From the IMG/VR virus record IMGVR_UViG_3300021255_004000, positions 64,001 through 128,000 of that record: DNA of 64,000 nt. One strand, given 5' to 3'. The first letter of the stretch is position 1. Each line of letters opens with the position of its first letter. Position numbers and translations under genes: made by a program. The DNA comes from a virus (Duplodnaviria > Caudoviricetes). Positions 9,161 through 41,152 of this stretch are shown piece after piece. The notes below the pieces were generated by a model. That model ran no database searches, was not told where the DNA came from, and saw only the letters and a list, made by a program, of their open reading frames with translations.

Positions 9161-10549
9161 TTACTTTAACAGATTTTTAATGTTTGCAATCAGAATTGCC
9201 TTGTCAGTTTTTCCGTTGTTTACCTGATCTTTATGGGCAACTTCCAGAGCCTTGCGGAACTTTTCACTTGGCTTGAAACCTAAAGCAATCAGATCATCAC
9301 CAGTTACAATAGGTGCAGGAATTGGCTGACCAATTAAGCTTACAATTTTTGGAGAAGCCAGAGCTTCGTCTAAAGGCATTTCTTCATCGTCAGCAGCAGT
9401 TTTGATACAACCATCGCTGTCGCTTCTGCACAGCTCGCACAGTAAGTCGAAGTCAGGCAGATTCAGAATACTCATAATTGCAAACTTTTTATCCAGCAGG
9501 CCTAACTGATGCATCTTCATATGATTTGCAACTAAGCCTTCAACACGATGAGCTGTTGCACAATCTAATCTTAAGTCTCTCAGGAACTTGTAAGCAATAG
9601 GAGCACCAACTTCTGCGTGATCTTTAACTGCAGGGAAACCATTTTTGCTTAAGCCATTTTTGCGGCCTGAAGCAGGCTTTCCACAGTCGTGCAGAATTGC
9701 GCCCATTATGAAAACGAAACGGTCAATTTCATTTTCAATTTTAGGAGCACGAGCAACTGCAGCTTTTACAACCAGCATTGTGTGGTTGAAAACATTGCCT
9801 TCACTGTGCCATTTTGGGTTCTGCTCGCAAGTTTTCATATCTTCGAAAATCTCAGTTAAGTGAATTGCATCGAAGATTCCCATTCTTCTCATAATTTCAA
9901 AAACTTCCATTGTGAAGTCTTTACCGCCAAAAGTTTTGATTAACTCAGCACATTGTCTTTCAACAGAAACATCAGCAAAAACAACTTCAGGTGTTATTTT
10001 GTTGATGTGTGCCTCGATTGCAGCAACATCCTTTTCATTTGCCTTGAAGCCTTTTGAAGCAACAAAGCGAACATATCGGAAGATTCTTAAAGGATCTTCA
10101 GTGATGCGGTCAACTGCGTTTCCAACAAAACTTAATGTGTTTGATTTGATGTCAGCAATACCACAACCTGTTGGGTCGATAATGTTTCCATCTTTATCTT
10201 CGTACAAAGAGTTTACTGTAAAATCTCTGCGGAAAGCATCATCTTCAATTTTGTTTGAAAACTTGATTGTGGGATGGCGGCCTCTTGTCAGGTCAGAACG
10301 CCAAGTTGCAATTTCAACCTGTTCACCATTGATGATTGGCATTGCAACTCCGTACAAGTTTGCTTTTCTTGTTTCTGTAACACCAAAGATTTTGTTGATC
10401 TCATCAGGTGTTGCATTTGTTGAAATATCATAATCGTGAGGAGTTCTTCCAGTCAGTTCATCACGAACGCAACCGCCGACAAAGTAGGCCTTAAAACCAG
10501 CATTTTCAATAGGTGTAATAACTTTTTTGATAATTTCCTGCTTTGTCAA
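9161..10549 (-). CDS. cca: tRNA nucleotidyltransferase (CCA-adding enzyme) with HD domain
   Basis: VGGCVRD, DYDIST, DAFRRDFTVN, EDPLRIFR; HD motif LHDCGK. Confidence 0.9.
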   Translation of the reverse strand: MTKQEIIKKVITPIENAGFKAYFVGGCVRDELTGRTPHDYDISTNATPDEINKIFGVTETRKANLYGVAMPIINGEQVEIATWRSDLTRGRHPTIKFSNKIEDDAFRRDFTVNSLYEDKDGNIIDPTGCGIADIKSNTLSFVGNAVDRITEDPLRIFRYVRFVASKGFKANEKDVAAIEAHINKITPEVVFADVSVERQCAELIKTFGGKDFTMEVFEIMRRMGIFDAIHLTEIFEDMKTCEQNPKWHSEGNVFNHTMLVVKAAVARAPKIENEIDRFVFIMGAILHDCGKPASGRKNGLSKNGFPAVKDHAEVGAPIAYKFLRDLRLDCATAHRVEGLVANHMKMHQLGLLDKKFAIMSILNLPDFDLLCELCRSDSDGCIKTAADDEEMPLDEALASPKIVSLIGQPIPAPIVTGDDLIALGFKPSEKFRKALEVAHKDQVNNGKTDKAILIANIKNLLK

Positions 10550-10571
10550 TTTGAACCTCCGTTACAAAAAT

Positions 10572-10600
10572 AATATAAAAGACTTGCACGGAAAGTTCAA
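10572..10600 (-). promoter_or_regulatory. sigma70-like early promoter (TTGAAC-N17-TATATT)
   Basis: one of ten copies with the same 17-nt spacer: 10572, 18936, 21048, 27799, 31595, 35749, 39570, 42720, 53998, 59896. Confidence 0.8.
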
Positions 10601-11169
10601 ATATTATGCAAAAGTGGATGATTCTTTTTATAGTCGAACTTCAAGCCGTCCTTTACAATTTTGACGATTTCATCGTAGCCTTTTTCATTACCATCAACGA
10701 CAACAAATGGGATTTTATTGGATTCGAGAAACTTGGATGTTTTTCCATCTATCTCTTTAGCTTCGCCTTCAGTTTGATTTCTTCCGTTAGGATTATATGG
10801 CTTCACACGATTGATGACGAAGTTGAAGTTGAAACGATGATACTTTTCAAACTCTTCAAGAGATGCAGCTTTCAACATTGGCTGATCTTCTCTTGCGTAC
10901 AATGCACCAAGAGCAATAGGGCTATCAGTGATAATTACATCGACTTTGCCAAAGCAGCGGCTTATTTTGAAAGACTGCTTTCCTGTAATGTAAAATTGAT
11001 TTTTGAAAACTTCAGAGTTGTTTTCCCAAACTTTATCTTTTGCAAACTCAGAAACATATTCACAGTCAATACCTGCAAGTTTGAGTTTTGCAAAAACATA
11101 AGCGGCGCCTGTAGATTTTCCTGCGCCTGGGCCAGCGAAAAGATTTACAATAATTGTGTTTTTATCCAT
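10597..11169 (-). CDS. P-loop NTPase/kinase (NadR-like AAA family)
   Basis: GPGAGKST; SEFAK; IITDSP; GRNQ. Confidence 0.8.
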   Translation of the reverse strand: MDKNTIIVNLFAGPGAGKSTGAAYVFAKLKLAGIDCEYVSEFAKDKVWENNSEVFKNQFYITGKQSFKISRCFGKVDVIITDSPIALGALYAREDQPMLKAASLEEFEKYHRFNFNFVINRVKPYNPNGRNQTEGEAKEIDGKTSKFLESNKIPFVVVDGNEKGYDEIVKIVKDGLKFDYKKNHPLLHNI

Positions 11170-11212
11170 AGTTGGATATTAACAAAAAAGGTTGCTAAAA
11201 AGCAACCAATTA

Positions 11213-11295
11213 CGGAACCTGCGTGAGTCGAACACGCTCAACCCGAAGGTTGTACAGCTTAGCAGGCTGCTGCATTACCGTCCTGCCCAGATTCC
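11213..11295 (-). tRNA. tRNA-Ser(GCT)
   Basis: cloverleaf, loop CT-GCT-AA, long variable arm, G73. Confidence 0.9.
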
Positions 11296-11304
11296 AAAAT
11301 ACTT

Positions 11305-11379
11305 TGTGAGTGGCAGGAGTCGAACCCGCCTTCATCTGATCCGTAGTCAGAGGCACCAATTCCGATATACCACACTCAC
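11305..11379 (-). tRNA. tRNA-Arg(ACG)
   Basis: TCTGA-CTACGGA-TCAGA, T-loop TTCGACT. Confidence 0.9.
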
Positions 11380-11388
11380 ATAAAATAT

Positions 11389-11504
11389 AGGCCTGTTGTA
11401 AATAGTGCAAGATTTTCAGTCTCGTGTGTCACCGTTTCACCTCATCAGGAAACCCTGATGGTGGGAGTCGAACCCACTTACGATAATAGGAACAACTTTT
11501 GCCT
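11389..11504 (-). ncRNA. carrier-stem RNA copy 1 with circularly permuted tRNA-Phe(GAA) module
   Basis: GGCAAAAGTTGTTCCTATT...TACAACAGGCC ends; internal order is T arm, loop-closed acceptor stem, D arm, CGAGA-CTGAAAA-TCTTG. Confidence 0.75.
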
Positions 11505-11510
11505 TATGAA

Positions 11511-11584
11511 AGCATCATATCGGATTCGAACCGACCCCTACTGCTTGGAGGGCAGTCGTGCTGAGCCGCTAACACTAATGATGC
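11511..11584 (-). tRNA. tRNA-Gly(TCC), C33 variant
   Basis: G1-C72, C2-G71, U73; loop CC-TCC-AA. Confidence 0.85.
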
Positions 11585-11597
11585 ATATTAAAGTTTT

Positions 11598-11671
11598 TGG
11601 GACCTCGAGGATTTGAACCCCGCACCCAGACATTATGAGTGTCGCGCTCTGACCCAATGAGCTAAGATCCC
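11598..11671 (-). tRNA. tRNA-CAT, probably Ile2 (lysidine type)
   Basis: loop CT-CAT-AA; GGG-starting acceptor and A73 resemble Ile2. Confidence 0.8.
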
Positions 11672-11675
11672 ATAA

Positions 11676-12050
11676 AGATTACACAGTACTAAGAATCTGT
11701 ATCGAACGTCGTACTCGGCGGGATCCTTTTCACTGATGAAGTTGAGTGGCTACTGTGTATCACCATTGATATGACCTGCCGTGGGACACGGGCTTCATCA
11801 TCCTTTGAGCAGCAGTTTTGAGTGACGAGTTCAAAACTTTATTGCCTCTAAGTGCCGCAGGTTCTGTCAGTTGTTTGAGAAGGACAGCGTATGTTAGACG
11901 CTTCCTTAATTATTGTACACTTGGTACAACAATCTCTCGTGTTTCCCTTGTCTTTCAAATCAGGCGCAAGTAAGAAACAAAGCGTTATGGAACCACACAT
12001 AATTCACATCATTTGTTGAACTCATAACCCTAGAAATGCCAAAATCCCTA
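11676..12050 (-). ncRNA. unidentified structured RNA(s)
   Basis: no ORF; several helices (TACACAGTA/TACTGTGTA, GTTTTGA/TCAAAAC, ACCTGC/GCAGGT). Confidence 0.45.
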
Positions 12051-12074
12051 TGTTTTTATATTAACATATTCAAG

Positions 12075-12147
12075 TCAGCCACCTGGGATTTGAACCCAGA
12101 ACCTAAGGATTAAGAGTCCCTCGCGCTAACCGTTGCGCCAGTGGCCG
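12075..12147 (-). tRNA. tRNA-Lys(CTT)
   Basis: AGGGA-CTCTTAA-TCCTT. Confidence 0.9.
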
Positions 12148-12152
12148 ATAAG

Positions 12153-12223
12153 TGAGCGATACGGGAGTTGAACCCGTCTCAGCAGATTAAAAGTCTGCGG
12201 CAAAACCGATTTGCTAATCGCCC
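12153..12223 (-). tRNA. tRNA-Lys(TTT)
   Basis: GCAGA-CTTTTAA-TCTGC. Confidence 0.9.
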
Positions 12224-12233
12224 GTAAATTGTT

Positions 12234-12306
12234 TGAGCTTGATGGGAATCGAACCCACGACCCACAGATTAAAAGTCTGTTGCTCTACCTATTGAGCTAC
12301 AAGCCC
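12234..12306 (-). tRNA. tRNA-Lys(TTT)
   Basis: ACAGA-CTTTTAA-TCTGT, canonical D and T arms. Confidence 0.92.
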
Positions 12307-12324
12307 ATAAGATACTCAAACAAT

Positions 12325-12387
12325 TTAACAGGCTTTGTCTAAGGCAGCAATTACTGCTGCCACTTCCGCATTTCCTCTCATAATCAT
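12325..12387 (-). CDS. 20-aa mini-ORF MIMRGNAEVAAVIAALDKAC
   Basis: strong AAGGAG RBS 6 nt before ATG, lying between tRNA-Cys and tRNA-Lys. Confidence 0.5.
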   Translation of the reverse strand: MIMRGNAEVAAVIAALDKAC

Positions 12388-12400
12388 AATTTACTCCTTG

Positions 12401-12473
12401 AGATGAGGATGGGACTCGAACCCACCTGTAACAGTTTTGCAGACTGCTGCCTCACCAATTTGGCTACCTCATC
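12401..12473 (-). tRNA. tRNA-Cys(GCA)
   Basis: GCAGT-CTGCAAA-ACTGT, U73. Confidence 0.9.
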
Positions 12474-12484
12474 ATAATTTTATT

Positions 12485-12556
12485 TACCGCGTGAAGGAGT
12501 TGAACCTTCCTAAGCCGTCTTGTAAGGGCGGTGCACAACCGATGTACCAACGCGGT
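12485..12556 (-). tRNA. tRNA-Val(TAC)
   Basis: loop CT-TAC-AA, A73. Confidence 0.85.
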
Positions 12557-12566
12557 ATAAAGTTGA

Positions 12567-12649
12567 CGGAAGCGACAGGAATCGAACCTGCGACCTTTTT
12601 AGGGGAGACTGTTTTCAAGACAGTTTGATGCGCCAACCAACTCGCTTCC
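12567..12649 (-). tRNA. tRNA-Ser(TGA)
   Basis: ACTGT-CTTGAAA-ACAGT, variable arm, G73. Confidence 0.85.
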
Positions 12650-12657
12650 AAATGTAG

Positions 12658-12730
12658 GGTGCCCATCGGGATTCGAACCCGACCCTGAAGATCCACAATC
12701 TGCCGTGCTAACCGCTAACACTATGGGTAC
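12658..12730 (-). tRNA. tRNA-His(GTG)
   Basis: loop TT-GTG-GA, C73; genomic -1 base is T, not G. Confidence 0.85.
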
Positions 12731-12732
12731 AT

Positions 12733-12805
12733 TGCTGAAGGCAGGATTCGGACCTGCTACATCTGCCTTATGAGGGCAGCGTTCAACCGTATGAACTTCT
12801 TCAAC
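12733..12805 (-). tRNA. tRNA-Met(CAT), elongator-like
   Basis: CTGCC-CTCATAA-GGCAG; T-loop TCCGAAT. Confidence 0.8.
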
Positions 12806-12812
12806 ATAATAG

Positions 12813-12883
12813 CCCAAACTCAGGGATTTGAACCCCGGCTAGATGATCTTCAGTCACCTGTGCTACCGCTACACCAAGTTTGG
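12813..12883 (-). tRNA. tRNA-Phe(GAA), atypical body
   Basis: GGTGA-CTGAAGA-TCATC; G37 and G73. Confidence 0.75.
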
Positions 12884-12888
12884 ATATC

Positions 12889-12962
12889 TGTGGCATCGGG
12901 GATTCGAACCCCGAAAATTTGCGTTCTTAGCGCAACAAGTATGCCAGTTCCATCAATGCCAC
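12889..12962 (-). tRNA. tRNA-Leu(AAG), short variable loop
   Basis: TTGCG-CTAAGAA-CGCAA; Leu-type D arm. Confidence 0.8.
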
Positions 12963-13570
12963 AAAAGTGTATTAGTTCGTTCATCGTATCTAATAAAGAT
13001 ACAATGAAGTCTACTTTTAATGTAGTCCTCTCTGGCTTTATCTTTCATCTTTCCTTTAACAGAATTGTGATAGCCTTTCTTTTCATCATATTCAAAAGCA
13101 ATGTTCAATTCTTTGTCATAGCCATCAAGGTGATATGGTCCAACACAAACTTCTCCGCCATTCATAGCGTGTTGTAAATGCCAACCATATTTTGCGTTCA
13201 GCTCATCAATGAACTTACAAGCATTTTCATTATAATTGCAATAGTTACCAAGATTGTGTCTTTTCCGCATCATCTCAGCAAGTTTTGCTCTTGTTTCAGG
13301 CGTATGAGTGTGGCCTTTCTTAATCTCACGATTAGGATTCAGTCCACAGTATCTCATATGTTGTGTTTTTGACTCCTTATTATTGAAGATTCTTCCGCAA
13401 AAGTCACAAAAACAAGTTTCTTTTCTATGAAGAGACCTTCCCAAGGAGTCAAGTCCTTGTTCTAATCTTTTTTCACAAGTTTTCTTATGTTCAAAATAGT
13501 TTCTTCTACCTTGAACAACACAACCACAATATTCACATTTCCAATTTTGAGCGTTTTTGTATGTTTTCAT
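12953..13570 (-). CDS. free-standing homing endonuclease (Zn fingers + NUMOD3 + PD-(D/E)XK-like domain)
   Basis: CxxC repeats, HTPETRAKL, YHLDGYD...AFEYDE. Confidence 0.75.
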   Translation of the reverse strand: MKTYKNAQNWKCEYCGCVVQGRRNYFEHKKTCEKRLEQGLDSLGRSLHRKETCFCDFCGRIFNNKESKTQHMRYCGLNPNREIKKGHTHTPETRAKLAEMMRKRHNLGNYCNYNENACKFIDELNAKYGWHLQHAMNGGEVCVGPYHLDGYDKELNIAFEYDEKKGYHNSVKGKMKDKAREDYIKSRLHCIFIRYDERTNTLLWH

Positions 13571-13622
13571 ATCAATTAGTAAAGATTGGAAGACACACTT
13601 AACATCTCAAACCCATATTAAC

Positions 13623-13650
13623 AAAAAAGGCAACTCCTAAGAGCCGCCTT
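13623..13650 (-). terminator. attenuator C terminator
   Basis: AAGGCGGCTC-TTAG-GAGTTGCCTT followed by T tract; 5' strand shared with the antiterminator at 13646-13689. Confidence 0.8.
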
Positions 13651-13682
13651 GAAAGATTTGTAAACTGTTTCTGCTTACAACT

Positions 13683-13811
13683 TCAAGGCTCTAATACGAA
13701 ATGTTTTCCAAAGAGAGAACGAAGGACCATCTTCGAACACATACCGCATCCCAATACGAAACTAACAAATGAGGAATGTTTAACTATGTTCGACATCTTT
13801 GAAAAATTCAT
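13683..13811 (-). CDS. leader peptide C (42 aa) MNFSKMSNIVKHSSFVSFVLGCGMCSKMVLRSLFGKHFVLEP
   Basis: AAGGA RBS; stop TGA lies in the antiterminator strand GCCTTGAA. Confidence 0.75.
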   Translation of the reverse strand: MNFSKMSNIVKHSSFVSFVLGCGMCSKMVLRSLFGKHFVLEP

Positions 13812-13893
13812 ATTCGTCAATCCTTAGCTATCAGGTTGCTACCCAAAATGTTTTTTCTTATTGAATAGTTAGTAAACAATTCAATAAAGTAAG

Positions 13894-13966
13894 TGGACCT
13901 ACCGAGCATCGAACTCGGACCTCAGGATTGCAGATCCCGTATGCCAGCCATTAACACCTTAAGCCC
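13894..13966 (-). tRNA. tRNA-Ala(TGC), C33 variant
   Basis: G3.U70; loop TC-TGC-AA. Confidence 0.85.
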
Positions 13967-13973
13967 ATAAAAA

Positions 13974-14090
13974 TCTTCTGTTTATCCGCGAAGGTTGTTA
14001 CCAACTCTTCTTTCCTCTTGGAGGAACTGCTTTGTTTATTCTCCCGCTCCCGCATAACGCGTCGGTGTTGCGTTAGGAATTCACAGAAGA
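13974..14090 (-). ncRNA. unidentified closed-stem RNA
   Basis: ends pair TCTTCTGT/ACAGAAGA; internal hairpins; flanked by tRNAs. Confidence 0.45.
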
Positions 14091-14094
14091 TTAG

Positions 14095-14167
14095 TGGACC
14101 GTAGGGGAGTCGAACCCCTCTTTCCAGCGTGCAAAGCTGGAGTACTAAGCCGATATACGAACAGCCC
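14095..14167 (-). tRNA. tRNA-Ala(TGC)
   Basis: G3.U70; CCAGC-TTTGCAC-GCTGG. Confidence 0.9.
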
Positions 14168-14174
14168 AAAATTA

Positions 14175-14260
14175 AAAGCGGGTTGTAAAAATTTCGCCGC
14201 AATGACGAAATATTGGAGTCGAACCAATAATTTCCGTTTAATAGGAACAACCTTTGCTTT
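14175..14260 (-). ncRNA. carrier-stem RNA copy 2 with T arm + closed acceptor-like helix
   Basis: AGCAAAGGTTGTTCCTATT...TACAACCCGCT; TATTGG-TTCGACT-CCAATA. Confidence 0.7.
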
Positions 14261-14261
14261 A

Positions 14262-14333
14262 TTCCTCTGCTAGGATTCGAACCCAGAACAACTGATCCAG
14301 AGTCAGCAGTGTTACCAATTACACCACAGAGAA
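14262..14333 (-). tRNA. tRNA-Gln(CTG)
   Basis: U1-A72; GCTGA-CTCTGGA-TCAGT. Confidence 0.9.
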
Positions 14334-14334
14334 G

Positions 14335-14406
14335 TCGGACGAGAAGGAGTTGAACCTTCGAAATCTCGGTCCCAGGCCGAGTGACATACCGCTTGCCGAC
14401 CGTCCG
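14335..14406 (-). tRNA. tRNA-Pro(TGG), C33 variant
   Basis: C1-G72, A73; CTCGG-CCTGGGA-CCGAG. Confidence 0.85.
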
Positions 14407-14414
14407 AAAATGAA

Positions 14415-14486
14415 AGCACCTGAAGGGAGTTGAACCCTCGCCTCAGCCTTGGCAAGGCCGCGTACTAGCCGTTATACTACAAGTAC
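14415..14486 (-). tRNA. tRNA-Gly(GCC)
   Basis: loop TT-GCC-AA, U73. Confidence 0.88.
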
Positions 14487-14494
14487 ATAAAATA

Positions 14495-14571
14495 TTGGGG
14501 TGGGTGGAATTGAACCACCGTGTAACCAACTAACCTTTCTGCGGTTTATCAGACCGAGGGTATACACCCCA
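14495..14571 (-). tRNA. rearranged tRNA-Ile(GAT)-like RNA lacking a canonical D arm
   Basis: 7-bp acceptor, CGGT-CTGATAA-ACCG, T arm; D-loop-like AGTTGGT lies 3' of the anticodon arm. Confidence 0.6.
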
Positions 14572-14587
14572 TTGTGTTTCAAGTTTT

Positions 14588-14660
14588 CAGGTGCGGAGAG
14601 ATTCGAACTCCCACCGACGGACTTGGAAACCGTAATGCTAAACCTTTACACCACGCACCT
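14588..14660 (-). tRNA. tRNA-Trp(CCA)
   Basis: A1-U72, G73; loop TT-CCA-AG. Confidence 0.85.
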
Positions 14661-14663
14661 ATA

Positions 14664-14695
14664 AATCATTAAAGGCTCAACTTTTAGTTGAGCCT
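14664..14695 (-). terminator. attenuator B terminator
   Basis: AGGCTCAAC-TAAAA-GTTGAGCCT plus an interrupted T tract; overlaps the antiterminator at 14689-14721. Confidence 0.7.
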
Positions 14696-14718
14696 GTAAA
14701 ATCCAAATTTTACTAGGC

Positions 14719-14853
14719 TCACTTGATCTGCCACTGTCCTGAAATTGGGGCAATAGCTGCAACTGGTGCAAAGCCGGCGAAAGAAACTGGAAGACTAATG
14801 TGGCCGGCAAGTTTTACTGACTTAACTGATTTACAAACCATCATTGCTTTCAT
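14719..14853 (-). CDS. leader peptide B (44 aa) MKAMMVCKSVKSVKLAGHISLPVSFAGFAPVAAIAPISGQWQIK
   Basis: AGGAGAAAGGA RBS; stop TGA begins the antiterminator strand TGAGCCT. Confidence 0.8.
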   Translation of the reverse strand: MKAMMVCKSVKSVKLAGHISLPVSFAGFAPVAAIAPISGQWQIK

Positions 14854-14958
14854 ATTGTCCTTTCTCCTATAATTTTATATTAACAACTTTTCAGAAGTTT
14901 CTGAAAAATTATTTTCAATATTTAGTTAGTACAGTTGCAAAAACTGTAAGAGTTTTAA

Positions 14959-15040
14959 TCGGCCAGGAGAGACTCGAACTCTCAATCCACACGGCGTCCG
15001 ACCTTAATTCGGATGTGTATACCAATTCCACCACTGACCG
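14959..15040 (-). tRNA. tRNA-Leu(TAA)
   Basis: TCCGA-ATTAAGG-TCGGA, variable arm. Confidence 0.85.
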
Positions 15041-15047
15041 AACAAAA

Positions 15048-15230
15048 TTAACTATCCTTTAAGTATGCAACAGTTTTTCCATTTTCAAACATTTCTTGTT
15101 GAAGTTTGGAAATCTTGTTGTAAAGATCTTGGCAAATGCCTTTTGATCTTCCACTTAAATGGAAGCGTGCCATATGTCCTAGCACGAATGCAAGTTCTTG
15201 CAATCTCTCGTTATCGAGTTTGATTGTCAT
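15048..15230 (-). CDS. small hypothetical protein (MTIKLDNERL...)
   Basis: AAGGAG RBS before ATG at 15230. Confidence 0.55.
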   Translation of the reverse strand: MTIKLDNERLQELAFVLGHMARFHLSGRSKGICQDLYNKISKLQQEMFENGKTVAYLKDS

Positions 15231-15275
15231 ATAGACTCCTTGCACCACCAATTTTTTAATGAAATTGGAAACATT

Positions 15276-15342
15276 GGCGAGCTGTAGCAAATATACATTA
15301 ACAGTGTATTGCCTCATCGGCGTAATAGGAACAACTTATGCC
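15276..15342 (-). ncRNA. carrier-stem RNA copy 3 with tRNA-Asn(GTT) anticodon arm
   Basis: GGCATAAGTTGTTCCTATT...TACAGCTCGCC; ATACA-CTGTTAA-TGTAT. Confidence 0.7.
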
Positions 15343-15351
15343 TAACATGTG

Positions 15352-15433
15352 TGGCCGCAGGAAGTTTTGCCATCTCTTCGTCCCCCGACTTACAAGGTCG
15401 GTGCTCTTAGGGCAGTCTGAGCTACATTTGGCC
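15352..15433 (-). tRNA. atypical tRNA-Thr(TGT) with degenerate T arm
   Basis: D stem GCTC/GAGC; CCGAC-CTTGTAA-GTCGG; no TTCRA loop. Confidence 0.55.
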
Positions 15434-15751
15434 TTTGCTGCATCATAAAAAGACAACGCAGCGAAATCCGAAGTTTTTCTTTCAGTTGCCACAACCAAGT
15501 ATTTTTCAACCCACGTCTCATTAAGACAACCTACACTGGAGCTTTTGGTAAAACTTTCTACCCATATTCATCATACGGTAACCATTGTAAAGGCCTTTAT
15601 GCTTGTTCCGCCAGGCTCCCCGCTGACCAAGCTGATGTCTCGGTAATTTTTCATACCAGCCTCACCTTGGGCTCATACTTCCTTTCCCCAAGTACTCTTA
15701 GGTTTTCACGCGACCTAAACTATCCCACGAGTTTGAAAGAGTTTGCTTTCT

Positions 15752-16054
15752 CTAGTAATAACACCACCATTTGATACGACAAGTTTCACTGTCGAAGCAT
15801 TCAGTAAGAATGTTATCAATTTCCTCTTCCGTTGTATCAATATTAACAGATTTCAGTCTGCTTCTGATAAGTCCACGAGAATCTTTTTTCTTCTCGGAAC
15901 GGTCTCCTTTCATCGCACGGCGAGCGTAACGATCACAAGGATTTCCCCAACGGAACCAGAATCTTCGAGCTTCCTGTGTACCGCGTCTTGCGGTATATTC
16001 ACCGTAGCTGAAGTTTGCCTTATAAAAGGCGCTCTCGCAATAATCATTTAACAT
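15752..16054 (-). CDS. hypothetical basic protein
   Basis: AGGAG RBS; 100-aa ORF. Confidence 0.5.
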   Translation of the reverse strand: MLNDYCESAFYKANFSYGEYTARRGTQEARRFWFRWGNPCDRYARRAMKGDRSEKKKDSRGLIRSRLKSVNIDTTEEEIDNILTECFDSETCRIKWWCYY

Positions 16055-16251
16055 CTAGTGTATCTCCTACACTATCCGTAAGTCATACGCGATCCTCCTA
16101 TTATAGCATCATCGTTCACAGGATCGAACTGCAACCGTACAGACCTTTAGAGCCTATCCGTTTTACCCCACACAGGGCGATGTTGCTTATGGTTGAACGA
16201 GATGGCAACAACATTACTTGTACACCAACGTCATCTGCTATAAAACTAAGA

Positions 16252-16333
16252 TGGGCCAAAGGAGAGTCGAACTCCTAATCCTTTCGGCGACTGCTTTTGA
16301 GGCAGTTGCGTATACCAGTTCCGCCATTAGCCC
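16252..16333 (-). tRNA. tRNA-Leu(CAA)
   Basis: ACTGC-CTCAAAA-GCAGT, variable arm. Confidence 0.9.
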
Positions 16334-16339
16334 AAATGA

Positions 16340-16412
16340 TTGCGGGAGGTGGACTCGAACCACCGACCTTCGGGTTATGGGCCCGATAAGCTGCCAACTG
16401 CTCTATCCCGCG
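16340..16412 (-). tRNA. initiator tRNA-fMet(CAT), C33 variant
   Basis: C1xA72 mismatch, three G-C pairs in the anticodon stem, loop CC-CAT-AA. Confidence 0.9.
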
Positions 16413-16427
16413 ATGTAACATGTGTTT

Positions 16428-16503
16428 TGACGCTGACAGGACTCGAACCTGCGACACCGAGCTTAGAAGGCTCGTGTTCTTATTCCAGCTGAACTACAGC
16501 GCC
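16428..16503 (-). tRNA. tRNA-Arg(TCT)
   Basis: CGAGC-CTTCTAA-GCTCG. Confidence 0.9.
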
Positions 16504-16685
16504 ATATTGAAAGTACTTTATACGTCGGACCAGTCCGTTCAGCTTTCGCCTAGGGAGTTTCGAGGCTCCCACCTACGCATATCAACTTTCTGTGTGCTTT
16601 TCGGGCTTCTTCTACTAAGCACTTAAACTTTCAGTTCTGCTAGAAACCAAAGTTCTTGACGTTCTCTCTAGCAATGAGAACCGTA

Positions 16686-16760
16686 TAGCTGTTGCAGGAG
16701 TCGAACCTGCTATCGTAAAGGATATGAGCCTCACATATTGAACCGTTCTACCCAACAGCG
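16686..16760 (-). tRNA. tRNA-Met(CAT), unpaired 1:72
   Basis: loop CT-CAT-AT; C1xU72. Confidence 0.7.
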
Positions 16761-16768
16761 ACGTACAA

Positions 16769-16890
16769 AAAGACGAGTTGTATTATTCGTGCTCTAACCG
16801 CTGAGCTATCCGCCCACGAACGAGCGGAGTTGGATTCGAACCAACGACCCCGTGCTTAAAAGGCAACAAATAGGAACAACTTATGTCTTT
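16769..16890 (-). ncRNA. carrier-stem RNA copy 4 with circularly permuted tRNA-Lys(TTT)
   Basis: GACATAAGTTGTTCCTATT...TACAACTCGTC; order is anticodon loop CTTTTAA, T arm, loop-closed acceptor TCCGCTC/GGGCGGA, D arm. Confidence 0.8.
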
Positions 16891-16893
16891 TAG

Positions 16894-16966
16894 CGGTGTA
16901 TGCGGGAATCGAACCCGCCATCTCCTGCGTGACAGGCAGGCGAAATAGCCGATATTCAAATACACC
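16894..16966 (-). tRNA. tRNA-Asp(GTC)
   Basis: CCTGC-CTGTCAC-GCAGG, G73. Confidence 0.9.
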
Positions 16967-17175
16967 AAATAAACAAACCACCTTCCAAACGGAACGCCCG
17001 ATACTTGATCTTAATGTCCGCACTTATCCAAGAGTTTCATTTCGCGCGAGAAACTCTCGGGGGTTAGGGAGCTACAGGTGCCTAGGCTTACTACGATTAA
17101 GCCAACAAATGCGAGCTCGTCTCACAAAGGTTTGTACTTTTTGCCAACTTCTGTCTAGAATGAAGTTGAAAGTAG

Positions 17176-17263
17176 TGGGCCGAGAGGGAGTCGAACCCCC
17201 GATGTTTGCCGTAAAGGTGACGGATTTACAGTCCGCTGACTTCGCCACTGGTCACACCGACCC
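17176..17263 (-). tRNA. tRNA-Tyr(GTA)
   Basis: GCGGA-CTGTAAA-TCCGT, long variable arm. Confidence 0.9.
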
Positions 17264-17329
17264 ATAAAATTGATGGCCGTGCTCATCACACATTTACAAC
17301 ATCGTTTCGAGCAATGTTACCATCAAGTA

Positions 17330-17402
17330 AGCTACTTGTAGGACTTGAACCCACAACATCCTGATTACAGGTCAGGCGCTCTACCATTGGAGCTAAAGTA
17401 GC
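17330..17402 (-). tRNA. tRNA-Thr(TGT), C33 variant
   Basis: CCTGA-CCTGTAA-TCAGG. Confidence 0.88.
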
Positions 17403-17558
17403 ACAATAAAAGATAAATTACATTTTTTCTTTCCATACATCTTTCATTCTAATTTGTCCGCGGTCACTGAACGAAGAAGATGGTTGTATTAGATGTTCTA
17501 TAACTTTTCGGGGCCTTAAGCCCGTATTGAGTGTTTCAACATCAGTCTCTTATCTTTA

Positions 17559-17631
17559 AGCCGCCTGAGGGATTTGAACCCACAACATCCGCATTACAGG
17601 TGCGGCGCTCTACCATTGGAGCTAAGGAGGC
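17559..17631 (-). tRNA. tRNA-Thr(TGT), C33 variant
   Basis: CCGCA-CCTGTAA-TGCGG. Confidence 0.88.
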
Positions 17632-17634
17632 ATA

Positions 17635-17706
17635 CAGTTCCGAAAGGAGTCGAACCTTCGTTCTCTGGATGAAAACCAGATGGCCTAGCCGTTAGCCGAC
17701 GGAACC
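17635..17706 (-). tRNA. tRNA-Glu(TTC)
   Basis: TCTGG-TTTTCAT-CCAGA. Confidence 0.88.
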
Positions 17707-17787
17707 AAAAACTGTGAACTACTTCTAAGACTGGACGGAAGTATAGCAGCTCGTTCAAAAGATATATTGACTTTCAAACTTTTGTCT

Positions 17788-17872
17788 CGTATCAGGCAGG
17801 GCTCGAACCTGCGATGGGCTTTCGCTCGGCAGATTAACAGTCTGCTGTCTTCGACCACTCGACCACTGATAC
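17788..17872 (-). tRNA. tRNA-Asn(GTT) with long variable arm
   Basis: GCAGA-CTGTTAA-TCTGC, G73. Confidence 0.85.
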
Positions 17873-17879
17873 ATATTTA

Positions 17880-18431
17880 TTATGTTAAAAAGATTTTTAC
17901 TTCTTCTATAAAGATTTTAGGATTATTGAAAATATCTTTCCAAGATTTTCTCAATTCTTTCCATCCTTCTTCATTCAGAAGTTTATCTTTCTGAACATCT
18001 CTTTCTTTTTGCTCTTGAAATCTTTCGTGTTGTTCACCATCAATTTCAACGCAAAGTTTTTTGTCAGGCCAAGCAAAGTCCAAAGAAAACCTATGAAAAG
18101 GAACTTCTCTGTAATAATCTTTATCAATTTCTTGACCAAATTCATTTCTCATCATTGTAATAAACCACTCCTCAGGATATGAAGGTTTATTATTCCAACG
18201 ACAATCTCCAATGTTATGAGCTCGACCTTCAGCGTGAGCTTTTTTCATCGAAGCAGAAATCTTTTGTCTAACATCATCCGACATTGTATGTCCGCAATGA
18301 TCCTTCAACTTCTGTCTTGTTTCTTCTGACAAAACAGGTTTTTCTTTTCCAAGAGCTTTAGCCTTAGTATATTGATTTGTACCGTGGCCTTTTCTTGCGT
18401 GCATTGCATCGTACCATTTTTGACTTTTCAT
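17880..18431 (-). CDS. free-standing homing endonuclease (NUMOD3 + DUF559/Vsr-like domain)
   Basis: SEETRQKL/SDDVRQKIS repeats; FSLDFAW..LCVEIDGEQH...RD..KD. Confidence 0.8.
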   Translation of the reverse strand: MKSQKWYDAMHARKGHGTNQYTKAKALGKEKPVLSEETRQKLKDHCGHTMSDDVRQKISASMKKAHAEGRAHNIGDCRWNNKPSYPEEWFITMMRNEFGQEIDKDYYREVPFHRFSLDFAWPDKKLCVEIDGEQHERFQEQKERDVQKDKLLNEEGWKELRKSWKDIFNNPKIFIEEVKIFLT

Positions 18432-18519
18432 ATCAATTAGTACGGTCCTCCGCTCTACATGTGTCCCTATCGTCGGAACCTATTGTCAACATCTTATCGT
18501 CGGTCCCTATTGTCGGTAG

Positions 18520-18593
18520 CGGGATATGCGAGCATCGAACTCGCGACCTCTAGCGTGACAGGCTAGCGTGGTAGCCAACTCCACCAATACCCC
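18520..18593 (-). tRNA. tRNA-Asp(GTC)
   Basis: CTAGC-CTGTCAC-GCTAG. Confidence 0.88.
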
Positions 18594-18807
18594 AAAATTG
18601 TAGGTATAAGAAACCTTTTGCAAGGAAAGGAATTACCCGTATGCCTTTTACCAGCCAACAACTTGTTCAGTAGTTCCATTTCTGTTATCTGACCAATAGT
18701 GTTTCTACTGGCTCTGACAAGTTATCAACCAAGGATTCGAACCTTCCACCGAACGATACCACGAGGTGGCAGCAACCAAGCTGTTATTTTATTCCGTTTA
18801 ACGTTCT

Positions 18808-18880
18808 TAGATCTTGCGGGGATCGAACCCACTCCTCCACCTTGAAAGGGTGGCGACTCAACCTTTTTGTCCTAAGATCC
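18808..18880 (-). tRNA. tRNA-Glu(TTC)
   Basis: CCACC-CTTTCAA-GGTGG. Confidence 0.88.
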
Positions 18881-18999
18881 ATATTTGAAGTTTCCTTCTT
18901 TTGTTGTAAACCTTTTGTATCGGTTTTACAGAAATAATATAAAAGAAGTTTTTTCAAAGTTCAAAAATTTTTATTTTTTTGCAATTTTTGTTATAAAAC

Positions 19000-19028
19000 A
19001 AAAAAGGCAAACCTTCATCGGTTTGCCT
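19000..19028 (-). terminator. attenuator A terminator
   Basis: AGGCAAACC-GATGAA-GGTTTGCCT followed by T tract; overlaps the antiterminator at 19023-19059. Confidence 0.8.
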
Positions 19029-19050
19029 CAGGGAAACATTTCTCAGTTCT

Positions 19051-19173
19051 CTAAGGCAACCTTGTATCTTCATTATAATCGTATTCATCTGTAGTGATAG
19101 CAGTTCTAACATCATTATTCAATAATGATCTTGTTGTGAGAACTTCTGCTGTCAATGAATACAATGAAGTCAT
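19051..19173 (-). CDS. leader peptide A (40 aa) MTSLYSLTAEVLTTRSLLNNDVRTAITTDEYDYNEDTRLP
   Basis: AAGGAAGG RBS; stop TAG lies in the antiterminator strand TTGCCTTAG. Confidence 0.78.
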   Translation of the reverse strand: MTSLYSLTAEVLTTRSLLNNDVRTAITTDEYDYNEDTRLP

Positions 19174-19267
19174 TTTTAATAGCCCTTCCTTAATATATTT
19201 CAATTAGTACAACCCTTAAAAATGTAAGAGTTGTAATTTGTTCCTCGTATATTTATATTAACAGATT

Positions 19268-19867
19268 TTAGTCTTCTGCTGTAGGAATTTCAATTCCAAA
19301 CAGTTTTGATAACTTATCTTTCCAATTAAGGAAATCATCGTTATGGCCGCCATCTGCATAATAAGTTACACCGTCATAAATCTTATCATAATTTGATAAG
19401 AAAGCTTTACAGAACTCTTCGTTCTCAGGATCGCCATCGCTGGCAGTATCATAAAGCTCGTCAATAAGTGTATCAAGCTTCTCAATGCAGTTTGCTGCTG
19501 CTTCATAGTTTGTCCAAACTCTTGAGAGAATTTGGAATAAACTTATCAACTTCATAAACTTATGCTTCAAAGCATCTGTTTTGATTACATCATACATATC
19601 AGAAAGTTCGCCGCCTACAATAACTGGGACGCCATTCAATCTTTCAAATGCGTGACATAATTCGTGTGCAACATATTTAGGCAAGTCCTCTTTGGAAACT
19701 TTTTTCCAAACAGAAATACTCTTTTCTGAAATGTTGTACTTTGCTTTCATTCCTGTGTAGTCAAAGTCGACAACATTTATAGAAACACTTGGACACGGAA
19801 TACCTGCATCCTCAAGCTTATCAAGCAAATTGTCTAAACACGCCTGTGCATCTTCTTGTTTAATCAT
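19268..19867 (-). CDS. HExxH metallopeptidase-like protein
   Basis: VAHELCHAFE. Confidence 0.65.
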   Translation of the reverse strand: MIKQEDAQACLDNLLDKLEDAGIPCPSVSINVVDFDYTGMKAKYNISEKSISVWKKVSKEDLPKYVAHELCHAFERLNGVPVIVGGELSDMYDVIKTDALKHKFMKLISLFQILSRVWTNYEAAANCIEKLDTLIDELYDTASDGDPENEEFCKAFLSNYDKIYDGVTYYADGGHNDDFLNWKDKLSKLFGIEIPTAED

Positions 19868-20035
19868 AAACGGTACTCCTAATATTTAGTTATAGGAGAA
19901 AGAGTTCTCGCCGGTTTTAATTTCTCAAACTACAGCCCCGCTACCTGCATTCGATTTTTGCAAGCCATACGAGTAGCATCACTGCTGCGAGGTTGATGGG
20001 ACTTTCACCCATAGTGACGTTTAACGAACTCCTAA

Positions 20036-20124
20036 TTCGGAAGGCGGGATTCGAACCTGCACGACGCTGATATGCGTCACCAGAATCAAAGTCTGGGGAG
20101 ATACCAATTACTCTTTACTTCCGA
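20036..20124 (-). tRNA. tRNA-Gln(TTG) with long variable arm
   Basis: CCAGA-CTTTGAT-TCTGG; GACGC-ATATCA-GCGTC arm. Confidence 0.7.
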
Positions 20125-20130
20125 GTAAAA

Positions 20131-20700
20131 TAGTTTTCTCACTCTTGTTTGCAACGCGACGCAAGATTCCAATAGGTGGACATATCCGATATTCCTATTA
20201 TACGGAAGGCCCTTAAGCGCATCTACTGCCGCGAGAAAACTATAGGTGAACCAAGGACTTGAACCTTGCCGTTACTCCAGCCTTGCGAGCTTCACGGATC
20301 CAACAGTGTCCACCATCATTATAAGTGCAGTCGGGAATTGAACCCGCTCTCAGCTGGCGTGATCCGCGTGGGACGAAGCCGTGCCTTTTTCCTTCATCGC
20401 ACTTAACAAGCCTTACGGATTGCTCCTGCTTGTAATGGAGTCTTAGAGGTTTGACTGCCAACCTTTAGAACATAGAGGATTCGAACCTCAGTTTCTGAGC
20501 ATACTACACTCAGCGTTCTAGACCCTGCCCTACTTTGCTGTGCACTGCTTTTTCGAGCTTTCGAACTAATGTTCTCCTTTGACGGTATCAACTTCATCCT
20601 GCGTCGTCATATACAGGCCTTTACCATCCGGTGCTTCCAGCGGTTGAGTATAACTCCTCATATTTCCCGTTCTCTGTGTAGCCATCTACGTTGAAGTTGT
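20131..20700 (-). ncRNA. run of tRNA-like and closed-stem RNAs (20131-20242, 20244-20314, 20324-20403, 20467-20574)
   Basis: three units have an acceptor stem and a TTCRA T arm but non-canonical D/anticodon regions; 20131-20242 is a closed stem. Confidence 0.5.
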
Positions 20701-20706
20701 CAAATA

Positions 20707-20779
20707 TAGTTCCTACGGGGCTTGAACCCATTTTTCGAGCTTGAGAGGCTCGCGAATTAGCCAGTTATTCGAAGGAACC
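20707..20779 (-). tRNA. tRNA-Glu(CTC)
   Basis: CGAGC-CTCTCAA-GCTCG. Confidence 0.85.
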
Positions 20780-20784
20780 AAAAA

Positions 20785-21015
20785 TTACATCTCAGGAATA
20801 AGCGTGCCATCTTTTAACCAAGCTTTTGGAGTAAAGTTTGGCATAGGCTGTAATGTTTCAAAAGACCACCAAGCATTATCATTTTTATCCCAAAGACCAT
20901 AACCAATGCCTTTTGAACCATCACTGTTAAAACCTACAAGAAGAACGACACCTTGATCTTTCCCTGCTTCCAAGTCAAAATTCCAAGTTGCTTCAACTGT
21001 TACTGTCTTTGCCAT
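20785..21015 (-). CDS. hypothetical protein
   Basis: AGGAGG RBS; downstream of early promoter 21048-21076. Confidence 0.65.
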   Translation of the reverse strand: MAKTVTVEATWNFDLEAGKDQGVVLLVGFNSDGSKGIGYGLWDKNDNAWWSFETLQPMPNFTPKAWLKDGTLIPEM

Positions 21016-21149
21016 ACTCGCCTCCTTGTTTGCGTTTTGACAATAATAATATAAAAGAATGTTTGAAAAAGTTCAAAAATTCTTAAATATTTTTCAAAAA
21101 AAAATACCTGCAGCAACAGCCACAGGTATTATATTAACACTTTAGGCTA

Positions 21150-22337
21150 TTACTGTTGAACCTGCTGTTGAGCTTGCTCCAAAGCTAAGTTTGGATTTTC
21201 CTGAGCAACCTGAATTGCCTGAGCAACAACATCAGGATTGATATTTGCACCAAGCTGATTTCCATATCTTTTATAGAAATTAAGAGCTGCACCAACATTC
21301 TTACAGCGAATTGCTGCTGCTGCGAGAATCATATTCTCGACTCCATTATGATTTTGGAAGAACTGTGGAAGATCATTTCGAAGTCCCTGCTCGCCCTGTG
21401 CATTTGCCTGACCTAAGAACTTGGAAATATAATTTACCAATTCTTTAGCTCCTGCATCAGTACCATCAAAATTGTTAAGTTGCTTTACGATTGCATTTGC
21501 AGTCATATTAGCAGAAGCTTCGTTCATTTGAATAAGACTTTCAAAGAAGTTGGTTTTCTCATCTTTAGCAGGTTTAGCAGCTTCAAGGATTTCATTAAAC
21601 AAACTTTCTTTGAAGCCAAGCTTCTGAAGAATTGAAGATTTTGCTTGTGGCTGCGCAGCAGTTGGCATTACAGTTCCAGTGTTGTTATCAACAACCTGAG
21701 CATTCTTGTTCATTGACATATCAGGCTTTTCAGGAGACCAATCCTGCATTGCTGCTTTTTCTTTTGCTGGAGCAGCAGCGTAAGCTTTCTGAAACTTGTC
21801 AACACGAGCAGCTGCGGCAGGAGACATTGAGTTCTTTGCTGCAACTGGGTTAGCCCAAGCAGTTTTATCAGGTCCCATAGGAACGCCTACATAAACACCT
21901 GTTTTATCAACTTCTGCCTGTCCTCTTCCGTTAGGCCCTGGTGTTATATCACGAATGCCTTTGTTAGCAAGATCACCAGCAAGAGCGCGGCCTGATGCTT
22001 CGCCGTTTGCATACTGCATTGTTCCGCCAATCTGTGCTTCACGAATGTTTACTGACCAGTTCTTTTCGATTTTTGGAAGTATTCCTCTTACCCATCTCAT
22101 CAAACTGTTAAACTGTTCAGGATTTTCTGTTGGATGTTCTTCATCAATCTTTCCTGCGATGTATTCAACAATTCCTATATCTGGGTCATTTACGCCTGCG
22201 TCAACATCTTCGCAATATCTGCCATACCAAAAGTCAACATCAGCTTCAAGACCATCATAAGAATCAAAAAAGTTTCCTTCGCGGAAAGTATCATATGCAT
22301 ATCCTCTGTTAAGGAGGTCCTCAATCATCTTTTCCAT
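21150..22337 (-). CDS. hypothetical protein (possible virion protein)
   Basis: 395-aa ORF preceded by the TACTAAT motif. Confidence 0.7.
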   Translation of the reverse strand: MEKMIEDLLNRGYAYDTFREGNFFDSYDGLEADVDFWYGRYCEDVDAGVNDPDIGIVEYIAGKIDEEHPTENPEQFNSLMRWVRGILPKIEKNWSVNIREAQIGGTMQYANGEASGRALAGDLANKGIRDITPGPNGRGQAEVDKTGVYVGVPMGPDKTAWANPVAAKNSMSPAAAARVDKFQKAYAAAPAKEKAAMQDWSPEKPDMSMNKNAQVVDNNTGTVMPTAAQPQAKSSILQKLGFKESLFNEILEAAKPAKDEKTNFFESLIQMNEASANMTANAIVKQLNNFDGTDAGAKELVNYISKFLGQANAQGEQGLRNDLPQFFQNHNGVENMILAAAAIRCKNVGAALNFYKRYGNQLGANINPDVVAQAIQVAQENPNLALEQAQQQVQQ

Positions 22338-39743: not shown

Positions 39744-39948
39744 ATAACATGCGCGGAAATTGCTTATTCGCAAGTATTCCATTTCCGCAAAAAGTTGAAA
39801 ACTGTAGGGTCTTACTAAAACTTGCGACCTAATCTGCTTTCAACTAGGGATACACCGTTTGTCCTCGTCGTTATCACGAGAGCACGAGGAATCCTCCACC
39901 ATCAATTTTTGAAAGAAATTGAAAACTTTTGCATTGTAAAACGCATAG

Positions 39949-40023
39949 AACTTCAAGTAGGATTTGAACCCACATCACCGCCAATCACCCGGCAGTATGC
40001 TTACCAAGTTACACCATTGAAGT
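39949..40023 (-). tRNA. tRNA-like RNA with non-canonical 8-nt anticodon loop (GGGTGATT)
   Basis: intact acceptor, D and T arms. Confidence 0.6.
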
Positions 40024-40736: not shown

Positions 40737-41114
40737 TGGACCTGGGGAGTTTCGAACTCCCGTCTTGCTCTGACGCCCATTAACACTCTTTACAGGCTTA
40801 AAACCGAATTGACGGTAGGGACGGTCAAAACCCATATTTACTTTTGGTTTTCGATTGAACTGAGCAAGCAACCCAACTCTTGTTCAACTTATCAGATGGG
40901 CGATACGAACATTCCACTATCTGAGTCGTGAAAGTCGCAGTTGGTCCTCAAAGGGTCCAACTAGGTGTTGCCTTAGGCAGCGCGAGCGAAAGCTGCGCGT
41001 GAACCACGAGCAACAACTGAACGTTTAGTTGCAGTTATTCTTTTCCGTATTAAGGTCGGCACCTTTACCTGATGTTAAAGAACTATTCAGCCAATCGATT
41101 CCAAAGTCAGGCCC
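40737..41114 (-). ncRNA. ssrA: tmRNA; tag (A)ATKRSVVARGSRAAFARAA*
   Basis: GGGCCTGA 5' end, G3.U70 Ala acceptor, T arm, ATAACT-GCA resume context, tag frame 41032-40973 ending AA-stop. Confidence 0.9.
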
Positions 41115-41152
41115 GATTAAACTGTAATTTTATATTAACAGCTGTTGAAGAA

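Follow-up and report, generated by a model that had tools for sequence, protein, structure and literature searches.

A Candidate Leader-Peptide Attenuator ahead of a tRNA Gene Block in an Uncultured Giant Rumen Phage

Genomic Setting and Layout of the Leader B Unit

The DNA analyzed here, called the window, is a stretch of 64,000 nucleotides from an uncultured giant phage of the rumen. Its G+C content is about 38%, and every gene, those for RNA included, is on the minus strand. Within its tRNA island, a short open reading frame (ORF), designated leader B, is located between the genes for tRNA-Leu(TAA) (14958-15041) and tRNA-Trp (14588-14660), with the following features around it.

11212-20780, minus strand: tRNA island, interspersed with DUF559-type endonuclease-like ORFs
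14877-14885, minus strand: promoter-like motif TGTTAATAT, 24 nt upstream of the leader B ATG
14858-14868, minus strand: ribosome-binding region AGGAGAAAGGA (AGGAG/AAGGA), read from the sequence and conserved in relatives
14719-14853, minus strand: leader ORF B, 44 codons plus a TGA stop codon (14721-14719)
13893-14660, minus strand: tRNA block B, comprising Trp-CCA, an atypical Ile-GAT-like tRNA, Gly-GCC, Pro-TGG, Gln-CTG, and two copies of Ala-TGC (ARAGORN and Rfam)

Leader B (ORF/peptide: MKAMMVCKSVKSVKLAGHISLPVSFAGFAPVAAIAPISGQWQIK) directly precedes tRNA-Trp and the same tRNA block in every relative. The Ile-GAT-like tRNA that the sequence-only reading had counted in block B is present at 14495-14571 (minus strand) but atypical: it scores 32.9 bits with Rfam, receives no ARAGORN call, and has 15 nt inserted in its variable region that are missing from the relatives, in which block B is the same but Ile-GAT is normal. 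This tRNA may be defective or unusual. An ARAGORN call for Arg-CCT at 14204-14280 was rejected, because it overlaps tRNA-Gln and has no backing from Rfam. After tRNA-Ala lies a conserved non-coding element, CTAACGCAACACCGACGCGTTATGCGGGAGCGGGAG (14040-14092, minus strand), which is also found in L001, a relative of 75% identity (L001:7235-7275).

The short sequence GTTAATAT has 21 copies in the window (for example at 11176-11183, 13615-13622, 14877-14884, 19255-19262, and 41132-41139), where 2.1 would be expected, and every one is on the minus (coding) strand. The copies usually read TGTTAATAT, and they often lie directly after the T-run of a terminator and ahead of genes, the tmRNA, or leaders A and B, leader A belonging to a sister unit described below. 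The copy upstream of leader B is invariant across all relatives. GTTAATAT is probably a phage promoter element resembling a -10 box. Another motif, TACTAA, had been put forward as promoter-like from the sequence alone; it shows no enrichment (16 matches against 27 expected) and was discarded. The 13 nt between the terminator hairpin described below and tRNA-Trp are too short for a promoter, and the layout of the unit is therefore promoter, leader ORF, switch, and structural RNA genes. This is the classical order of an attenuator, minus a convincing 1:2 pause hairpin.

Maintenance of the Leader ORF in Relatives

Relatives were reached in metagenomes through the neighbouring gene for CCA-adding enzyme. 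Homologues of leader B form 24 protein clusters of 80-93% identity, together with two diverged forms, one in L001 (64% identity) and the other in L014. Bovine gut metagenomes are the main source of DNA near-identical to the window. A scan of JGI metagenomes turned up just two loci, whose leader is identical; scans of IMG/VR with the CCA enzyme and the leader alignment as queries gave no matches, and neither the region nor the leader peptide has any relative among GenBank phages. More distant relatives of the CCA enzyme (L011-L013) were uninformative, since no tRNA island lies beside the gene.

The start, stop, and frame of leader B are maintained in the relatives. Among the close ones, codons 30-36 vary by indels of 3, 6, and 9 nt, so that the frame and the position of the stop codon are preserved. 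The dN/dS ratio of leader B is 0.37 against L001 and 0.72 against L009, compared with 0.15 and 0.09 for the CCA enzyme in the same small sample, and the dS of leader B is about half that of the enzyme or less. Within the limits of the small sample, this pattern would fit selection acting on the RNA and its translation, and not on the peptide itself, which has no match in Pfam. Two properties of the peptide speak against an attenuator: codons 22-36, the supposed sensor stretch, are its most variable part, and the succession of a Lys-rich N-terminus and a hydrophobic stretch is also reminiscent of a small membrane peptide.

Mutually Exclusive RNA Folds at the Stop Codon

The end of leader B and the segment before tRNA-Trp can adopt two alternative structures.

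14689-14721, minus strand: antiterminator helix of 14 bp; 5′ strand 14721-14707, loop 14706-14703, 3′ strand 14702-14689
14673-14695, minus strand: terminator hairpin of 10 bp, AGGCTCAACT / AGTTGAGCCT around an AAA loop, with 14695-14689 of the 5′ arm shared with the 3′ strand of the antiterminator
14661-14672, minus strand: interrupted U tract TTAATGATTTAT, by reading of the sequence

It had been noticed from the letters alone that an antiterminator, TGAGCCT-A-GTAAAAT / ATTTTAC-AGGCTCA, starts exactly at the stop codon, and its first base is indeed the T of the TGA (14721). As RNA (UGAGCCU-A-GUAAAAU / AUUUUAC-AGGCUCA), this helix has a predicted energy of -15.1 kcal/mol (z = -5.3 against shuffles). 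The terminator hairpin, AGGCUCAACU / AGUUGAGCCU, starts with the last seven bases of the antiterminator and alone has -14.8 kcal/mol; it is followed by the tail UUAAUGAUUUAU and then by the start of tRNA-Trp. In the full segment, the antiterminator (-15.9 kcal/mol) and the terminator combined with an inner 7-bp hairpin (-18.2 kcal/mol) are mutually exclusive and close in energy. When transcripts are folded step by step as they lengthen, the antiterminator remains the best structure for as long as the 3′ arm of the terminator is incomplete. A point against attenuation is that the U tract UUUAAUGAUUUAU is interrupted in the clade of the window and that a simple terminator scan gave no call there. 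The U tract of L001 is canonical (TTTTTTGATTTAT).

All seven sequences compared (the window, L007-L010, L001, and L014) preserve the UGA-to-GG(C/U)UCA helix, with differing inner sequences. In L001 the inner helix is rebuilt into a perfect 17-bp stem from UGA to GGCUCA (-20 kcal/mol, z = -7.3), and the antiterminator helix of L014 has 14 bp. The terminator of L014 has changed on both sides, its 5′ arm from GGCUCAAC to GGUUCAAC and its 3′ arm from GUUGAGCC to GUUGAACC, a compensatory replacement of C-G by U-A, and the antiterminator retains the changed position as a G-U pair. Both folds are thus conserved in three diverged lineages, which are not independent tests because of their common ancestry. 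A putative pause or 1:2 hairpin inside the ORF (GCCGGC...GCCGGC) was not significant in any of the three (z = -1.75, -0.6, and +0.8).

Two further units of the same design lie in the tRNA island.

19004-19173, minus strand: sister attenuator A; 40-codon ORF rich in Thr/Asp/Glu/Tyr/Asn/Arg, antiterminator over the stop codon, canonical terminator
13627-13811, minus strand: sister attenuator C; 42-codon ORF rich in Phe/Ser/Lys/Met/Val/His/Leu/Cys, antiterminator over the stop codon, canonical terminator

The helices of A and C likewise take in the stop codon and part of the 5′ arm of the terminator, and orthologues of A are found at L007:5290-5412, L015:5533-5652, and L014:7320-7433. As a control for specificity, the terminator-like hairpins on the coding strand of the window (about 22) were scored for the best pairing of the 5′ arm with the 60 nt upstream. 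Leader A ranked first (-11.1 kcal/mol, z = -4.2), B second (-10.7 kcal/mol, z = -2.3), and C about fourth (-8.7 kcal/mol). Four bovine gut RNA libraries from three studies yielded contigs that run through the leader, the terminator, and tRNA-Trp, with no transcript ends, strand, or level readable from them. They give a weak hint of read-through transcripts of leader B, although DNA carry-over could also account for them.

Composition of the Leaders and the tRNA Blocks

The sequence-only reading regarded leader B as a sensor of the amino acids served by block B, and its counts are borne out by the ORF. Thirteen of the last 16 residues are Ala, Pro, Ile, Gly, Gln, or Trp; the 43 residues that follow Met1 are all drawn from the amino acids served by blocks B and C, with no Thr, Tyr, Asp, Glu, Asn, or Arg; and the codons are as listed (CCA three times, CAG twice, GGC twice, TGG, ATT three times, and ATC). 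No 16-residue stretch among 49,873 in the proteins of this phage and its relatives reaches 13 of 16, and none of 42,817 stretches of 44 residues is free of Thr, Tyr, Asp, Glu, Asn, and Arg. The statement that the codons are cognate to block B holds for most of them but not for Gly39, a GGA unread by Gly-GCC, and, under strict wobble, UGC does not pair with the rare GCC found at three of the seven Ala positions.

When the three leaders are considered together, each matches its own tRNA block above the amino-acid background of the phage (30/39 residues for A, p = 4e-5; 20/43 for B, p = 0.0055; 36/41 for C, p = 1e-7), and matches to the other two blocks are depleted. After shuffling of the tRNA genes among the blocks, the diagonal sum of 86/123 was reached in 247 of 200,000 trials. 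At the codon level and under strict wobble, the 3 × 3 pattern of leaders and blocks recurs in the window, L001, and L014, and the codons of leader B are split about equally between blocks B and C with block A avoided.

For leader B by itself, the whole peptide was not significant in tRNA shuffles (p = 0.14), which counts against an attenuator; the restriction of every residue to blocks B and C gave p = 0.004, and the last 16 residues, a stretch picked post hoc, gave p of about 4e-4. Two other results weigh against codon-specific sensing: cognate codons are used at 15 of 20 positions against 12.9 expected from phage codon usage (p = 0.21), which is no excess, and the Pro codons vary among CCA, CCC, and CCT in the relatives.

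Changes of tRNA genes in L014 allow some of the correspondence to be followed. Block B of L014 contains Gln-UUG and its leader B has three CAA codons, while lineages with Gln-CUG use CAG. Block A of L014 houses Gly-UCC and Cys tRNAs; leader A of L014 has acquired one Gly codon (GGG) and one for Cys, and its leader C has lost two of three Gly. No Arg-UCU gene was detected in L014, whose leader A has lost two AGA codons. Co-variation fails in two cases, since two Cys codons are still present in leader C of L014 and leader A gains two CAA codons though Gln lies outside its block. The C-terminal bias and the Gln switch agree with an amino-acid-specific sensor, but the whole peptide and codon usage give no significant signal, and codon-specific sensing by leader B is only moderately supported.

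Leader C and the Proposed Nesting of B and C

In the N-terminal half of leader B, 17 of 21 residues are those of block C. This had suggested a nested logic, in which B also opens the way to block C. It fits the leaders of the window and L001, both of which contain residues of blocks B and C only, but not that of L014, which has Asn and an Arg encoded by AGA; many population variants of leader B also have Thr, Tyr, Asp, Asn, or Glu, against such nesting. The stretch from terminator B to leader C is free of GTTAATAT, and block C may therefore depend on the promoter of B. In the window, the following ORF is situated between terminator C and tRNA block C.

12953-13570, minus strand: ORF of 205 aa with weak zinc-finger matches, preceded by GTTAATAT

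This ORF is absent from L007-L010, L001, and L014, in which tRNA-Leu follows terminator C immediately. The ORF probably arrived as a mobile insertion, bringing GTTAATAT with it, and it may bypass attenuator C in this phage.

It is possible, if rather doubtful, that the three leaders constitute a hierarchical, demand-driven circuit for tRNA supply, in which each block would be made only when its codons are decoded slowly and leader B would read the codons of block C as well. Because of this double reading, transcripts from the promoter of B would pass whenever either set of tRNAs is short, for example after host shut-off or the action of anticodon nucleases.

A Model for Attenuation and Its Alternatives

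The anatomy claimed for the unit from the sequence, namely a promoter-like motif, a ribosome-binding site, a short ORF, and a stop-anchored antiterminator overlapping a terminator hairpin ahead of the tRNAs, has stood up to the comparison and is shared by three lineages. Its best explanation is a transcription attenuator of the ribosome-mediated (leader-peptide) type that gates tRNA block B, and we place somewhat more belief than doubt in it. The analysis establishes the sequence, both folds and their conservation, the preserved frame, and the bias in composition, whereas promoter use, termination, coupling, and the identity of the codons that matter are what we infer in this model. Transcription would begin at TGTTAATAT, and the 44-codon leader would be translated as RNA polymerase advances. 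A ribosome running freely to the UGA would cover the 5′ strand of the antiterminator (the outer UGAGCCU), leaving the terminator as the only fold: the freed AGGCUCA would pair with the downstream GUUGAGCCU, the terminator hairpin would form, and transcription would stop 13 nt before tRNA-Trp. If the ribosome were delayed at least four codons upstream, the antiterminator would form first and hold the 5′ arm of the terminator, and the polymerase would read into tRNA-Trp, Ile, Gly, Pro, Gln, and Ala. Candidate sites of delay are the stretch rich in Ala/Pro/Ile/Gly, Gln40 or Trp41 (both borderline), and the N-terminal half rich in Lys/Ser/Val. With no translation at all, read-through would be the default. 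Since the tRNAs of block B would speed decoding of the leader, the circuit would act as a negative-feedback controller of supply.

The unit could also sense the general rate of translation, that is, the pace of the ribosome relative to RNA polymerase, for example after host shut-off, and the composition of the leader would then be incidental. The anatomy of such a device is identical to that of a codon-specific attenuator, and it would readily accommodate the lack of codon-level excess over phage codon usage, the variable and indel-bearing sensor stretch, and read-through by default without translation. It leaves aside the 3 × 3 association of residues and tRNA blocks across three leaders, the joint change of Gln codon and anticodon in L014, and the extreme composition of each leader, and we regard it as unlikely. 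A similarly low probability is given to an ordinary small phage protein gene, perhaps for a membrane peptide, with an unremarkable hairpin or weak terminator behind it, the tRNA match and the stop-codon helix being coincidences. Here a Lys-rich N-terminus and a hydrophobic Ala/Pro/Ile/Gly/Val/Phe stretch would exclude acidic and polar residues on their own, more than 24 clusters preserve the ORF, leader B alone is statistically weak, and phage T5 has small ORFs among its tRNA genes without such a switch. However, constraint on the peptide is relaxed while the frame is kept, indels fall within the hydrophobic stretch, and no family matches it. Moreover, the alternative helix is conserved despite its rebuilt sequence, two sister units of very different composition share the design, and antiterminator potential is specific to the terminators of the leaders.

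The hairpin might instead be an element of RNA processing or stability that guides or protects the 5′ leader of the tRNA precursor (at RNase P or RNase E sites) with no termination, translation of the ORF being irrelevant or of consequence for decay only. The canonical U tract in L001 and the canonical terminators of the sisters A and C disagree with this, and it explains neither the stop-codon-anchored helix nor the maintained ORF; although 13 nt separate the hairpin from the 5′ end of the tRNA, the clade of the window has a weak U tract, and RNA-library contigs cross the site, we consider it the least probable of these explanations.

Relation to Known Attenuators

In the ilvGMEDA, ilvBN, and thr leaders, as well as in trpL, hisL, leuL, and pheL, a short translated leader lies between the promoter and the structural genes, as in the leader B unit. 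The multivalent ilv and thr leaders also contain regulatory codons for several amino acids, and in the enterobacterial leaders the 5′ arm of the intrinsic terminator can alternatively pair upstream with the position of the ribosome selecting the fold. Unlike these systems, leader B is phage-encoded and precedes genes for tRNAs, the very molecules that would be sensed, rather than for biosynthetic enzymes; its antiterminator begins at the stop codon, and it has no runs of a single codon. It also has just three segments; a 1:2 pause or anti-antiterminator hairpin did not reach significance, and untranslated transcripts should therefore read through by default.

Attenuation by a leader peptide acts on a gene of the translation apparatus in the pheST (phenylalanyl-tRNA synthetase) operon of E. 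coli, as proposed for leader B; its leader, pheM, is bacterial, responds to a single amino acid, controls a synthetase, and has no sequence relation to leader B. T-box riboswitches resemble the unit in that a choice between terminator and antiterminator reports tRNA status, but they bind uncharged tRNA directly, have no ORF, and control synthetase or amino-acid genes. An Rfam search of 10500-21500 (E <= 0.1) found no leader family (Trp, His, Thr, Leu, or Phe) and no T-box; the matches were tRNAs, one partial tmRNA, one weak YrlA-like element, and one chance match to a plastid family. Phage T5 was considered as a cultured model and rejected, because the small ORFs beside its tRNA genes have neither a terminator or switch nor a matching composition.

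Phage tRNA genes are usually regarded as constitutively co-expressed cargo, and a full-text literature search found no account of leader-peptide control of such genes. If the attenuator model holds, the phage would gauge decoding speed for each codon set and replenish only the scarce tRNAs, and classical attenuation would be extended from the supply of amino acids to that of tRNAs. This would be relevant to the survival of giant phages when host translation is shut off and under defences that cleave tRNAs, and the small leader B element would be a compact natural sensor of codon-specific translation speed.

Other RNA Elements of the tRNA Island and the Window

Several other RNA elements were observed in the window and its relatives. 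Sub-threshold matches to YrlA (Y RNA-like) lie inside the tRNA island at 16788-16852 and at L001:1318-1387, with 32 and 40 bits against a gathering score of 69. The tRNA-Gln(TTG) genes of the window (20036-20124) and L014 (L014:10764-10848) have an unusually long variable arm. A tRNA-like gene at L014:8046-8123 scores 46 bits with Rfam, has the anticodon TTA by relaxed ARAGORN, and may encode an ochre suppressor tRNA. The window also contains a tRNA-like gene with a four-base anticodon (39948-40023) and a tmRNA gene (40737-41114). Finally, between Lys-CTT and a tRNA with the anticodon CAT, a stretch of 400 nt free of tRNAs (11673-12073, minus strand) has GTTAATAT at its start; it is kept in L014 in different reading frames and is therefore probably a structured RNA rather than a gene.
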